Origin: Eledone cirrhosa
Lineage: Eukaryota
Length of the DNA: 64,000 nucleotides
NCBI GenBank assembly: GCA_964016885.1
Contig: OZ024743.1
Coordinates: 84,692,001 to 84,756,000 of the forward strand
Direction: 5' to 3'
This document shows, one piece after another, positions 1,635-63,560 of this stretch; position 1 is the first letter of the stretch, and each line of letters opens with the position of its first letter. The notes under the pieces were generated by a model. That model was given only the letters and a program-made list of their open reading frames with translations. It had not been told where the DNA came from and did not search any database. Both the position numbers and the translations under genes were made by a program.

Positions 1635-2006
1635 ATAATATAAGATCAAAAGATGGTTAAAAGAGTTCCAAGTATTTTATTATGCGCATTTCAAAAACAA
1701 ATATCATCATGGGATGATATTTGCGTTCTCATCAGATAAAATAGGGAAACATGATATGAAGCTTAAAAAACACTTGTGAGCAGTGAAGTTTTTAAGCTTC
1801 ATATCATGTTACCCTATTTTATCTGATAAGAACGCAAATATCATCCCATGATGATATTTGTTTTTGAAATACGCATAATTAAATACTTGGAACTCTTTTA
1901 ACCATCTTTTGATCTTATATTATTTATACTCCAGTCCTATAAACTGTGGAGTGCTACTTATCCGATATTTGCATTGCTTTATTGTGCTGCAATAAAACTC
2001 ACCTCC
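1635..2006 (+). mobile_element. Fold-back Penelope-like non-autonomous element, family A copy 1 (inverted arms 1635-1774 / 1782-1923, unpaired tail 1924-2006), between (TA)n tracts
   Basis: About 140-bp inverted repeat, hammerhead motif in both arms, tail tactccagtcc..aataaaactcacctcc shared with the copy at 16464. Confidence 0.8.
1674..1742 (-). ncRNA. Minimal type I hammerhead ribozyme (intact core)
   Basis: Minus strand: ATTTTAT-CTGATGA-stem II (GAACGCAAATATCATC/ccat/GATGATATTTGTTTTT)-GAAA-TGCGCA-TA|ATAAAAT. It has a 7-bp stem I, a palindromic stem III and an AUA cleavage triplet. Confidence 0.75.
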
Positions 2007-2072
2007 TATATATATATATATATATATATATATATATATATATATATATATATATATATATATATATATATA
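2007..2072. repeat. (TA)n microsatellite
   Basis: Pure TA run separating two fold-back elements. Confidence 0.95.
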
Positions 2073-2617
2073 TCATAAAACATGTCTATAGAATCACGAG
2101 ATAAAATATATACCATTTCCTCTCCCAATTAGCATAATCAACCATATAAAAAATCGAATAGACCAGGCTATAAGAATAAGGCTTCTATGAAGAAATCTCC
2201 AACAAATAACCGAAACTAGCCCTTCGCGTCGGCTGCGACGGAATATTTATCGAATATTTCGACAGCGTAATCGCCCAGATACAGTTAATTAAACAGAATT
2301 AGGTGTAAAATAAACTAGGAGAAAAGAGAATACATTTATTTACCTCGACCATGGTTTCGTCCGCATTTTGAGATTTCCAATAACTTCGGAAACGCGAAGG
2401 GCTAGTTTCGGTTATTTGTTGGAGATTTCTTCATAGAAGCCTTAATCTTATAGCCTGGTCTATTCGATTTTTTATATGGTTGATTATGCTAATTGGGAGA
2501 GGAAATGGTATACATTTTATCTGGTGATTCTATAGACATGTTTTATGATATATAGCTCTGATTATTTAATTTATTAACTTTTCATTGAGCCACAAAGTGA
2601 CCCGTTGCAAAACACGT
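2073..2617 (+). mobile_element. Fold-back element, family C (arms about 2073-2229 / 2392-2549, spacer, tail to 2617)
   Basis: About 157-bp inverted repeat flanked by (TA)n. The spacer carries minus-strand GAAACCATGGTC (hammerhead 3' half with palindromic stem III). Confidence 0.7.
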
Positions 2618-2771
2618 ATATGTATATATATATATATATATATATATGTAAACCTTTATATATATATATATATATATATATATATATACATATATATATG
2701 TAAACCTTTATATATATATATATATATATATACATATATATATATATAAAATATGTGTGTGCATATAATAA

Positions 2772-3095
2772 GGTGGTGAACTAGCAGAGTCATTAGAACA
2801 TTGGATAGAATGCTTTGGGTATTCATTCCAGCTCACTGCGCTCTGAGTTCAAGTCCCACCGAGGCCAACTTTGCCTTTCCTCCTTTCAAGGTTGATATAA
2901 AAAAAAGTACCAGTCCAATACTGGGGTCGATTCTTCCTCTATATCTCTTTCTCAATTCATCTTTATTACTCTCTCTTTCTCCTTCTCTGGAAGAAACTGA
3001 TGTATTTAAACCTGGGGAGGGGCTGGGCTCCACCAGATAAAAAAAAAAATGCTACAGTGCCCCTACAACTCCATCAGGAGTTAAGGGTCCATTTA
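2772..3095 (+). mobile_element. tRNA-derived SINE with Meta-like central domain (long-tail subfamily)
   Basis: A/B-box-like head (gagttcaagtccc), central actttgcctttc(a/c)tcctt..gataaaa..agtaccagt. Related copies at 8367, 39480 and 41895. Confidence 0.7.
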
Positions 3096-3189
3096 TACAT
3101 ATAAAAAAAATTTTGGCTTATTTTATTTTTCTTTAGATTTCCCTATAAGATTTCTTCATATTTTCAATTCTAGTTGATTAATCAGGAAA

Positions 3190-60137: not shown

Positions 60138-60239
60138 CAGAGAACCTTCTACATTAAACGTCTGTGCATTCTTACATAATAACATTACATCACGTTCCAA
60201 ATCATCGAGACTTCGGTATTTGTGGTCTCTGATTCTAGC
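60138..60239 (-). CDS. SMARCA4: brahma/SMARCA2-4 bromodomain exon
   Basis: tag|[40 protein letters not shown], 102 nt. Confidence 0.96.
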
Positions 60240-61199
60240 CTAGAAGAGACATTTACATCCAATTATAACATCATGTTTTAAAATAACAAAATACATACAC
60301 ACACACATATATGAATGTGTGGAAACATGTAACCCTTTTATTACCATATTTGTAATGTTTTTCAAATACTTCCTCATTATCTATCTGTTATTTGCAGCAT
60401 AGCTTAACAAAGGATCTTACATAATATTATGATGGAAGGATTTTTTTTTAGATAAATCCCTTTGTTCCCATATTTCAAAGGAAAGACACTACCTATGATT
60501 TTCAAATACTTTTTTAAATAATCAAGAATTTGGAGAGGTCCAGTAATATAACTTTCTTGTTATTTAACAACTTAAAAGTTCTTATATGAAACTATGATAG
60601 AAGGTTGGGTTTTTTTTTCAGATAAGTACAAACACTTTAAAACAAACTATTGTTTCATAAAACCATGGGTGGTGTCAGGTGGTTTGGTAGCAAAATGATT
60701 AAGAGAAAGATTGTATTAAATGCCACAAACATATATTTTCACCTATGAAGTATTTCATGATGATGATGATGATGATGATGATGATGATGAAACACTTCAT
60801 AGGTGAAAATATATCACTGAAGTGAAACTGGGTTGATAAAGGTTTAGAAAATAATAATAGATATAATCTGGCAGAAATATGGAGTTGATTGTCAGATCAG
60901 ACCAAGGAAACACTGATTCTATTCATCTTTCCATTGTTGATATTATCTGTAGATTGCAACTCCTGGCAGAAGGTGCAACAAAGTATTTTGCTCAAGAACA
61001 CAACATGCCACCATATCCAGGAATCAAACCCATGACCTTATAATTATGAGTTTAAGTCATCAATCAGGAGTTAAAACATCCCAGAAACTTACTATAAGTT
61101 GCAATCTCATAAGGGGTTTGTTTAAACCCATACAGGTGTGGGCTGTAACAACAAGTAACAATGGTGTGTGAGATATATGAAACATATAGACAAACCTAC

Positions 61200-61305
61200 C
61201 TTAATTTTTCTAAAATCAACTGGCTTTTTAATGATTTCATAATATTCTGGTAGTTCTTTACGTGATGGTAAACTAATAAAGACTTCACTAAGGACACGAC
61301 CATCA
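61200..61305 (-). CDS. SMARCA4: brahma/SMARCA2-4 bromodomain exon
   Basis: tag|(S)[41 protein letters not shown], 106 nt. Confidence 0.96.
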
Positions 61306-61789
61306 CTAAAATAAACAACATAAATATACAAATGTATGAGAAAAGTCAATAAGGAAAAACACAGGAGAACAGTACAATACAATGATGATATATATTGGTT
61401 TAATACTTGATATAGTAGAAAAAAGTCTTAATGTTTCAAACATGTCCAGGGATAAAGGGTTGCTTTAAAAGTACCAAATAGACACTATAACTGCTGGTTA
61501 TTAATTAGGAGGGGAAATAGTTGAAACAGATGGATGGTTGATCAATTCTTACAAATGGCCACAGGAATATAACTGTGATATATGTATGGGGGTCAGTCGA
61601 GATCAGATAAATATTCATGCTGTGAGTTAGGGGCCAGGTAAATATTTATCTGGTCAATTAAGGTCAGGTCAATATTTATGGGGTCAGTTGGGGGCCAGGT
61701 AAATATTTATTGGGTCATTTGGGGACCAGGTAAATATTTATTGGGAGGAAGACAACAGAAAGGTTGAATAACCAATAGAGTTGAAACAA

Positions 61790-63560
61790 TACAACCTGTG
61801 TATACTATATCAACCTACAACAGGCGTGTATAATAGCATATACTACAAAAGGTGTATAGTAGAGTGTACATAACATATACAACAGTAAAGTATAGCATTA
61901 TATATTATAGCTATAGGAGGTGTGTATATAACATATATAGCAATAAGACAGACCATCAGAATGTATATAATACATACAGCAGTAAAACAGAACAATAAAA
62001 TATTACAGTGTATATAATACAGGGTATATAATATATATAGCAGTAAAATTGACCAACAAAGTATTACAGCTGCAATGTATAGTACAATGTATATAATATA
62101 TACAATAGTAAAATCGGTGTAGAGTGTATATAACATACAACAGTAAAACAGATCAATAAAGTATTACAGTATATATTACAGATACAGCAGGTGTATATAT
62201 AACATATATAGCAGTAAGACAGACCATCAAAATATTATAGTCTCCATATATTACAGCTACAACAGGTGTATATAGTAGAATGTATATAATATATATAGCA
62301 GTAAAACAGACCAATAAAGTATTACAGTAATATATATACATTTATACAAGCTATAACAGAGGTATATAGCACAATCTCTATAATATATAATAGCAGTAAA
62401 ACAGGTGTATAATGCAGTGTATATAATATATATATCAGTAAAACAAACCAATAAAGTATTACAGCAATATATATACTACAGCTACAACAAAAGTGTATAG
62501 CACAATCCCTATAATATAGCAATAAAACAGGTGTGTATAGTAGAATGTATATAATATATATAGCAGTAAAACAAACCAATAACATATTACAATATACACT
62601 ATAACAGGTGTGTATAGTACAATCATCATCATCATATACAATATATATATATATATTAATGAGTACATCAAAGAATGAGTTTTACACTAGATTGGAAGCA
62701 CTCTACAGAACTATATTTTCCAGAGTTATTAATATTAATTCAAATATTAACAAAAATAGATATTCTTGTGATCAATTAAATTTTATTATACATATTTCAG
62801 AGGTACTGAATTAAGTTCAACAGTACGTCCTCATCAGGGTTTGTCATGTATCATTTTATTTTATCTCATGAGGACATACTGTTGAACTTAATTCAGTACC
62901 TCTGAAATATGTATAATAAAATTGAATTGATCACAAGAATATCTATTTTTGTTAATATTTGAATTAATATATATATATATATATAACAGTAAATCAAGTG
63001 TATAATACAATGTATATAATATATTTATAGTAGTAAAACAATTGTATAATACAATGTATATAATAAATATATAGCAGTAAATTAAGTGTATAATAGTGTA
63101 TATAATATATATATATAACAGTAAATCAAGTGTATAATACAATGTATATAATATAATATATATATAGTAGTAAATCAATGGTATAATAGTGTATATAATA
63201 TTTATATAACAGTAAAACAATTGTATAATACAGTGTATATAATATATATGTAGCAGTAAAACAATTGTATAATACAGTGTATATAATATATATATATAGC
63301 AGTAAATCAAATGTATAATACAATGTATATAATATATATATAGTAGTAAATCAATGGTATAATAATGTATATAATATTTATATAACAGTAAAACAATTGT
63401 ATAATACAGTGTATATAATATATATGTAGCAGTAAAACAATTGTATAATACAATGTATATAATATATATATATAGTAGTAAAATAAGCACATATAATATA
63501 TATAACAGTAAATACAGTGTATATAATATATATATAACAGTAAAACAGATCCAATAAAGT
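61790..63560. repeat. Degenerate AT-rich minisatellite region (agcagtaaaaca..gtataatacagtgtatataatatat), interrupted by a fold-back element
   Basis: Recurrent diverged units. Confidence 0.8.
62657..62970 (-). mobile_element. Fold-back Penelope-like element, diverged family A member (tail 62657-62731; arms 62732-62837 / 62865-62970)
   Basis: 106-bp inverted repeat between (TA)n tracts. ATTTTAT-CT(C/G)ATGAG-stem II-GAAATATGTATA|ATAAAAT. The tail shares ctgtagagtgctt with the copy at 16464. Confidence 0.75.

Follow-up and report, generated by a model that had tools for sequence, protein, structure and literature searches.

What produces the many short fold-back elements that lie at (TA)n microsatellites in a 64,000-nucleotide stretch of the 3.0-Gb Eledone cirrhosa genome (C4:84,692,001-84,756,000; the whole stretch is called the window below), several of them with an intact or decayed hammerhead ribozyme? 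A preliminary description of this DNA had proposed a diversified population of mainly non-autonomous elements derived from Penelope-like elements (PLEs) or retrozymes. The sequence comparisons reported here suggest that ten of the eleven elements are PLE-type insertions, five of them ends of protein-coding PLEs, and that the head-to-head pairs arose from two reverse transcriptions that were primed on both cut strands of a TA target and copied one RNA, a reading to which we assign a probability of roughly 0.62. The set in the window is real, dense and mostly explained, consisting of PLE members plus one unrelated element.

Ends of Penelope-like elements

The PLE-type elements of the window, apart from a retrozyme-type pair (see below), are as follows, where pLTR stands for pseudo-long-terminal-repeat, each element is also named by the position in brackets, and a strand is given where one was assigned.

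E1 (1635), 1630..2006: two Hydra-clade PLE pLTR ends placed head-to-head in (TA)n; the arm without a tail, 1630-1788, is in minus sense and has an intact hammerhead core (1735 down to about 1681); the other arm, 1789-1928, has a mutated core and is followed by the tail, 1929-2006
E3 (16464), 16458..16770: second subfamily of the E1 Hydra-clade PLE; tail on the right
E5 (36712), 36655..37158: two ends of an E6-related Neptune-type PLE, arranged head-to-head; tail 36655-36711; arms 36712-36888 and 36983-37158; decayed hammerhead 36940(+) in the loop
E6 (43325), 43341..43568, minus strand: single tail-less 3' end of a Neptune-type PLE
E7 (44325), 44314..44590: PLE-type pair; arms 44314-44413 and 44427-44528; both hammerheads decayed; tail on the right
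E8 (46410), 46411..46747: PLE-type pair; hammerhead 3' half in the loop (GAAA 46528, minus strand); tail on the right
E9 (47350), 47369..47672: PLE-type pair; arms 47369-47471 and 47491-47593; tail on the right
E10 (47687), 47686..47935: pair derived from a GIY-YIG PLE 3' end
E11 (62657), 62657..62970: PLE-type pair; tail 62657-62731, on the left; arms 62732-62837 and 62865-62970

Five of these elements (1635, 16464, 36712, 43325 and 47687) were identified by sequence as pLTR ends of protein-coding PLEs, with which they match or are continuous, and the proposed PLE origin was confirmed in this respect. The suggested check for full-length PLEs with the same ends was answered by L358 (L-numbers denote individual genomic loci outside the window), a complete tandem of pLTR plus tail, a 715-amino-acid frame, a 3' untranslated region (UTR) and again pLTR plus tail, with a period of 3668 bp. 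E1 is 99.3% identical to the L358 pLTRs in the arm and 96-99% in the tail, which in L358 continues into the element body. The L358 frame gave no direct Pfam match, and its reverse transcriptase (RT) region matched a Pfam-confirmed PLE RT (E = 2e-7). By its motifs (DKT, a CxCX5C linker, C-terminal CxxC and CxH, no CCHH), the E1/E3 parent matches the Hydra-clade definition given in PMC8557442, aside from RWI in place of RWK. In an arm-only search, whose sample was small and selected by similarity to the window arm, 15 E1 arms continued through a 1-kb 3' UTR into the endonuclease, which rules out E1 as a short non-autonomous monomer. The family is very abundant, with 150/150 scored matches at an identity of at least 86%. 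E3 carries its intact hammerhead, 16563(-), in the unpaired loop, and lies in the middle of a 7-kb TA/TG microsatellite array (window 11263-18123).

E5 and E6 were assigned to the Neptune type by linker and CCHH motifs: the linker reads CX4CxxC in L060, and L049 and L117 show the C-C-H-H pattern. GIY-YIG was found upstream of E6-type ends in 7 of 19 other loci, and the E6-parent endonuclease passes the Pfam GIY-YIG cut-off; the E5-type hammerhead lies downstream of GIY-YIG in L269 and L310, and the two types have the same optional tail. E6 itself, whose hammerhead core has its first base mutated (43502), is a single end without a fold-back and had correctly been described as a partial relative. 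The sequence of E10 is contiguous with an endonuclease frame and 3' UTR in 1 of 13 loci (L182), and E10 has no hammerhead because it was cut off downstream of the decayed hammerhead of its family. For the parents of E5, E6 and E10, the endonuclease and 3' UTR are the portions observed. In three further abundant GIY-YIG PLE families (A, B and C; L051-L079), a long 3' UTR leads up to a terminal TA run, and the flanks examined show no canonical hammerhead belonging to these families.

E11 appears tied to a coding PLE indirectly, through a related subfamily that in L270 forms a head-to-head junction with a Hydra-type endonuclease, and has stem I and tail words in common with the Hydra family; its minus hammerhead copy lacks stem I and the core of the plus copy is mutated. 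E7, E8 and E9 possess PLE anatomy at the sequence level, the hammerhead core of E9 being truncated or mutated. Overall, the predominance of non-autonomous families had to be given up, as five elements are coding-PLE ends, only 2073 was shown to be of retrozyme type and one element is Helitron-like. Two side observations concern E7 and E8. Stem III of the 44325-type family (L205, L228, L280 and L305) consists of 4 bp with a loop of 8 nt, where the other families have a short palindromic stem III, and this hammerhead may be able to cleave itself in monomeric form. An inverted E8-family tail lies 1.7 kb to the left of E8, at 44621-44687, beyond a long interspersed element (LINE) with RT frames (about 44690-46408); the LINE may have divided a two-tailed exception, or the tail may stem from another insertion.

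Structure and probable origin of the head-to-head pairs

The junction between the two arms differs from copy to copy and the loop may lie in either orientation, so that the hairpin must be remade at each insertion. A tail, 58-97 nt long, was present on exactly one arm in 30 of 35 distinct pairs (p = 1e-5 compared to 50%; the listing gives 31/36, with one pair entered twice), a count that omits pairs picked by tail-bearing queries and was drawn mostly from the E1, E5 and E6 families. Of the five exceptions, two lie in tandem arrays, and the other three have been interrupted or have undergone later truncation. Of the 31 pairs listed, the tail-less arm is the one that extends more to the 5' side in 24 and the tailed arm in 2. 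Six pairs contain a tail piece without complement in the other arm. Alleles agreed from arm to arm in 143 of 158 comparisons, compared to 61% when permuted (0/2000 permutations reached the observed agreement), and all of the 148 automatically detected head-to-head junctions lie within one family. Because the arms share alleles and the junctions stay within families, one shared RNA is favoured, and the one-tail rule, the arm lengths and the non-overlapping tail pieces together indicate that two priming events are needed, which disfavours snap-back or antisense self-priming.

The sequence basis of the favoured model is a pair of 5'-truncated copies that meet head-to-head at a variable junction, only one of them being tailed; their outer ends lie in TA, at two sites that are fixed within each family. 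The GIY-YIG endonuclease would cut both (TA)n strands; one 3' end would prime at the upstream site to give the tail-less arm, while the other would prime at the tail end, behind the first, and the tailed arm would consequently be shorter in most cases and sometimes a mere tail piece. The two complementary DNAs (cDNAs) would then be joined at their 3' ends, and the resulting hairpins are dead by-products. A PLE protein studied in vitro cuts both target strands and extends them, hammerhead cleavage being dispensable, and two internal start sites of reverse transcription flank the tail near the junction of the 5' pLTR and the open reading frame (ORF; PMC11167929).

The short forms suggest that priming often takes place in the 5' pLTR. 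In the E1 family, 12 of 35 arms stop 64-72 nt upstream of the core, eight of them at exactly -69, and 16 longer arms are spread across 1.4 kb; in the first pLTR of L358, both start sites lie within about 255 nt of the pile-up point. In the E7 family, a TATAA box was seen in three of four long copies, and the short copies (7 by eye) break off about 30 nt downstream of its position, 4-9 nt short of the core. In the E11 family, TATATAAA lies 30-31 nt before TCACT in two long copies and one short copy starts at TCACT. The 5' ends accumulate at a probable transcription start. E1-family matches (14 unselected, 97 selected) showed no pile-up of 5' ends where the hammerhead would cleave, and such cleavage does not appear to set the pair ends. 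Drosophila Penelope is transcribed from within its own 5' repeat region (PMC2377424), and we infer from the DNA sequence that a tandem PLE transcript likewise starts in the 5' pLTR, where priming would run off the RNA 5' end after 170-255 nt. Because of this run-off, mini-elements of 250-550 bp could form without a dedicated non-autonomous family.

An alternative explanation with the same PLE origin is that the subunits of an enzyme dimer each copy a separate RNA and that random 5' truncation generates the short forms. A dimer has been predicted for the PLE protein (PMC11167929), and at L049:1433-2615 a tailed arm of the 2073 retrozyme family and the end of a coding Neptune-type PLE without a tail form a head-to-head chimera that is bounded by TA on either side, suggesting that two RNAs were used in one event. 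However, the within-family junctions and the alleles common to both arms speak for a single template, the one-tail rule and the longer tail-less arm would demand extra assumptions, and the sharp 5' pile-up is unlike random truncation; we regard two separate RNAs as unlikely. Still less probable is self-priming, in which an antisense RNA or the first cDNA folds back and is extended, and the endonuclease later trims one tail. Snap-back has been suggested for head-to-head PLE palindromes (PMC3846280), the tail has been attributed to endonuclease resolution (PMC8557442), and the identical arms and the short palindromes at some junctions would be accounted for. Snap-back from a tail-primed cDNA, however, requires the tailed arm to be the longer one, as is true in only 2 of 31 pairs, and does not explain the six pairs in which a tail piece lacks partner sequence in the other arm.

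Several points weigh against priming of one RNA at two sites. The chimera needs two RNAs and was missed by the automatic junction count owing to its identity cut-off. The allele sharing could also have arisen by subsequent gene conversion or from subfamilies that were not active at the same time. A canonical TATA box is lacking at the E1 pile-up, which falls on an ATAT patch that possibly favours microhomology joining. For E7, E8 and E9 (44325, 46410 and 47350), no linked PLE frame was found in the 1.5-kb flanks of the sampled loci that were searched for coding parents. Frangieh et al. observed no strand difference in the start site in vitro, a result that does not bear out coupling of the two sites.

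Hammerheads and fold-backs in the window

Local alignment showed inverted arms of 61-212 bp at each of the ten main coordinates, with an identity of about 84-98% and loops of 13-162 nt, as had been proposed, with the qualification that the fold-back at 23772 belongs to a Helitron-like element without hammerhead or tail. The tail of 36712 lies on the left and not on the right. At least four TA units adjoin one or both ends in 8 of the 11 elements, and the proposed TA association thus applies to most of the window, with 23772, 36712 and 46410 as exceptions.

Intact hammerheads, defined here by a structural descriptor of the type I motif complete with all three stems, were found in the window only at 1735(-) and 16563(-), and in none of 12 shuffles. 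The claim that most elements carry an intact or decayed core was accordingly sustained in part: the hammerheads of 36712, 43325, 44325, 47350 and 62657 are mutated or missing one stem, 2073 and 46410 keep only the GAAA-CCATGG-UH half, and in 47687 the motif is wholly absent. The bare core pattern occurs seven times in the window compared to an expected 2.4 +/- 1.6 (3 of 100 shuffles reach 7), and five of these matches fall within listed elements. A ribozyme together with its antisense copy across both arms, suggested for the elements in general, is present in 1635, 44325 and 62657 and not in the rest. Family members elsewhere carry intact hammerheads for E1/E3, E2, E5, E6, E7, E9 and E11 (and, by eye, E8), while the E10-family hammerhead was decayed in the copies examined. 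No hammerhead family appeared among the 150 of 233 matches listed in an Rfam scan of the window, which were hairpin or microsatellite microRNA models only, all below cut-off.

Genome-wide density and TA targeting

An unbiased sample of 120 evenly spaced 10-kb stretches (1.2 Mb) contained 77 intact hammerheads, compared to 0-2 in each of 20 local dinucleotide shuffles, which confirmed the enrichment over shuffled controls. This corresponds to about 64 intact motifs per Mb, or one per 16 kb, and extrapolates to about 190,000 in the genome (95% Poisson range 150,000-240,000). Fold-backs numbered 144 and covered 4% of the sample; 31 of the 77 hammerheads lay inside them. (TA)4 was found within 25 nt of one or both ends in 84 of the 144 fold-backs, compared to 6% of control intervals, and the TA preference was therefore also upheld. 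The 4% coverage is not all PLE-derived, because only 30 of the 144 fold-backs match our 19-entry family library and the remainder is mixed, including other TA-flanked families, pairs of short interspersed elements (SINEs) and simple repeats. Hammerhead-bearing sequences from all loci sampled fell into 45 clusters, many of them singletons. Genome similarity searches, in which 40 candidates were scored per search, gave 760-4823 first-look candidates per window element, totals that are not copy numbers.

In its widest form, our proposal is that the roughly 190,000 intact hammerheads are mostly PLE end-pairs, that a dimeric enzyme opens a TA target on both strands and double-primes one RNA around the tail, usually in the 5' pLTR, that most attempts consequently end early as run-off hairpins, whose turning point maps the promoter, and that retrozymes share this route, at times within one insertion together with a coding PLE; we put forward this combination tentatively and would rate it somewhat short of even odds.

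Predicted RNA structure and the neighbouring gene

The preliminary description favoured dedicated non-autonomous hairpin elements that move as a whole, with the antisense arm regulating the ribozyme or feeding ADAR and small-RNA pathways. Part of this holds for 2073, an ORF-less tandem monomer, and it is possible for 44325, 46410 and 47350; a 1635 transcript is predicted to fold into a 140-bp duplex (z = -29), and 62657 lies within an intron of the Brahma gene. On the other hand, the junctions differ in every copy, indicating that the hairpin is rebuilt per insertion, five elements are coding-PLE ends, and most hammerheads of the window are broken or located in the loop. The 10 window copies tested showed no strong A>G or T>C excess compared to the family majority (1-15 differences each; the largest was 5 T>C of 15 in E5), which argues against hyper-editing in any of them, and a fixed loop occurs in the Helitron-like unit only. 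Contigs from four probable RNA runs of other organisms did not match 1640-2006, a result that counts neither for nor against expression. As a general explanation, the dedicated hairpin is already contradicted, and we consider it very improbable.

The gene concerned is SMARCA2/4 (Brahma), whose last exons lie on the minus strand at about 63,575-63,805, 61,210-61,310, 60,160-60,250 and from 56,670 down; the stretch 56,500-63,805(-) includes the bromodomain, with a match to BRG1 in PDB (E = 2e-13). Element 62657, with hammerheads broken on both strands, is the only one shown to be intronic. Two hairpins of the window that the preliminary description does not list were noted at 54773-54829 and 34606-34761, the first of which by eye resembles sequence upstream of the 47687-family hammerhead, and an inverted pair at 57511-59377, with arms of about 800 bp that are 75% identical, consists of SINE- and LINE-like repeats and is not of the PLE type.

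Retrozyme-type and Helitron-like elements

The two remaining elements are the following.

E2 (2073), 2067..2660: truncated pair of an ORF-less tandem hammerhead retrozyme family with a monomer of about 645 nt; arms 2067-2229 and 2392-2554; hammerhead 3' half in the loop, minus strand (GAAA at 2358)
E4 (23772), 23781..25437, minus strand: Helitron-like and non-autonomous, about 1.2 kb long; a LINE fragment (24339-24833) interrupts it

The 2073 family consists of tandem monomers with a period of 644-646 nt, a longest ATG frame of 27 amino acids and one type I hammerhead each, and these ORF-less tandem units with their hammerhead place 2073 among the non-LTR retrozymes. The E2 tail passes through a TA run to the monomer start at about 2660, and 16 of 19 tail ends in the family continue through this run into the first bases of the next monomer; hence the TA run is borne by the element. 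Such ORF-less tandem retrozymes probably depend in trans on the PLE enzymes. We also observed six or more further hammerhead families arranged in tandem, whose periods are 310-523 nt (L244, L225, L229, L308, L112, L158 and L199), L244 and L308 being two-armed inverted hammerhead arrays.

E4 has a 5' TC and a 3' CTAG end, is inserted between A and T with no target duplication seen, and was filed as Helitron-like by the end rules of this group (5' TC, 3' CTRR and an A|T insertion site). Among 13 loci of its family, the CTAG end was parsed in 11, all with a flanking A (11/11; one CTAA), and the TC end in 8, all with a flanking T (8/8). The fold-back, with 200-bp arms, is situated at the 3' end, and the loop is fixed in 10/10 aligned copies. 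The apparent tail is element body cut off by the LINE fragment, and no clear subterminal hairpin of 16-20 nt was found by eye. From 43709 onward, another element begins with CTAG beside a TA run and has a short GC-rich inverted repeat; it probably belongs to a second Helitron-like family, seen here at its 3' end in minus orientation. For the ten other elements, the long inverted arms at TA sites and the Helitron ends of 23772 might suggest miniature inverted-repeat transposable elements (MITEs) or other DNA transposons, a negligible possibility that is refuted by asymmetric ends with one-sided tails, copy-specific junctions and continuity with RT and GIY-YIG frames, in agreement with the earlier view that these are not MITEs.

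Comparison with known systems

The elements themselves are ordinary dead insertions, and their interest lies in their density and in the countable constraints that they place on an open mechanism: each pair should have exactly one tail, with the tail-less arm as the longer one, the two arms should have alleles in common, and the 5' ends should cluster at the promoter. Young, nearly identical copies and one hammerhead per 16 kb make these predictions countable, and the existing in vitro PLE system could test them directly. Thousands of apparent MITE-like hairpins would be by-products of retroelements, which bears on repeat annotation and is also relevant for estimating the double-stranded RNA potential of introns.

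In LINE-1 twin priming, a head-to-head inversion arises because the same RNA is also primed internally, by the second strand of the target. In the elements studied here, the two priming sites are fixed and less than 100 nt apart, and the PLE cDNAs overlap and form a hairpin because of this proximity. E4 resembles non-autonomous Helitrons in its termini, its insertion site and the lack of a duplication, and differs from them in its 3' fold-back and in the absence of a clear subterminal hairpin.

Compared to the metazoan non-LTR retrozymes (PMC7229834; 10.64898/2026.07.22.740005), 2073 is alike in its ORF-less tandem with one type I hammerhead per unit, while its unit of about 645 nt exceeds the usual 150-450. 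It also differs in its internal TA run, its PLE-style head-to-head pairs and its one-sided tail; PLE-derived retrozymes as such have already been published in the same reports. With the minimal hammerheads of metazoan PLEs (PMC4209133), the present motifs share the type I core, a short palindromic stem III, a bulged base before stem II and the diversity of sequence families. That report ascribes opposite-strand hammerhead pairs 100-700 bp apart to truncated PLEs and gives about 2,000-9,000 motifs per genome, compared to about 64 intact motifs per Mb in our sample, which was scored with a different descriptor.

The E1/E3 parent agrees with the Hydra clade as described in PMC8557442 in DKT, CxCX5C, the lack of CCHH, the C-terminal CxxC/CxH, a canonical hammerhead and TA targets, and differs in RWI instead of RWK and in a unit of 3.7 kb instead of generally less than 3 kb; the clade is very abundant here, whereas that survey reports few families outside cnidarians. 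The complex insertions of endonuclease-bearing (EN+) PLEs (PMC8557442, PMC3846280) are similar in their inverted 5'-truncated copy joined at the 5' end, (TA)n targets, one-ended tail and hammerhead in the pLTR, with tails of 30-40 nt compared to 58-97 nt in our pairs. The inverted copy, the one-sided tail and the TA preference are therefore already published (PMC8557442), where the way in which PLEs make inverted one-tailed insertions is stated as an open question. A literature search, with subscription journals outside its scope, found no paper whose listing indicates coupled twin priming or promoter run-off in PLEs. What the present pairs add are counts of the coupling to one tail, the arm-length asymmetry and the 5' pile-up, where the published descriptions (PMC8557442, PMC3846280) call the tail optional.

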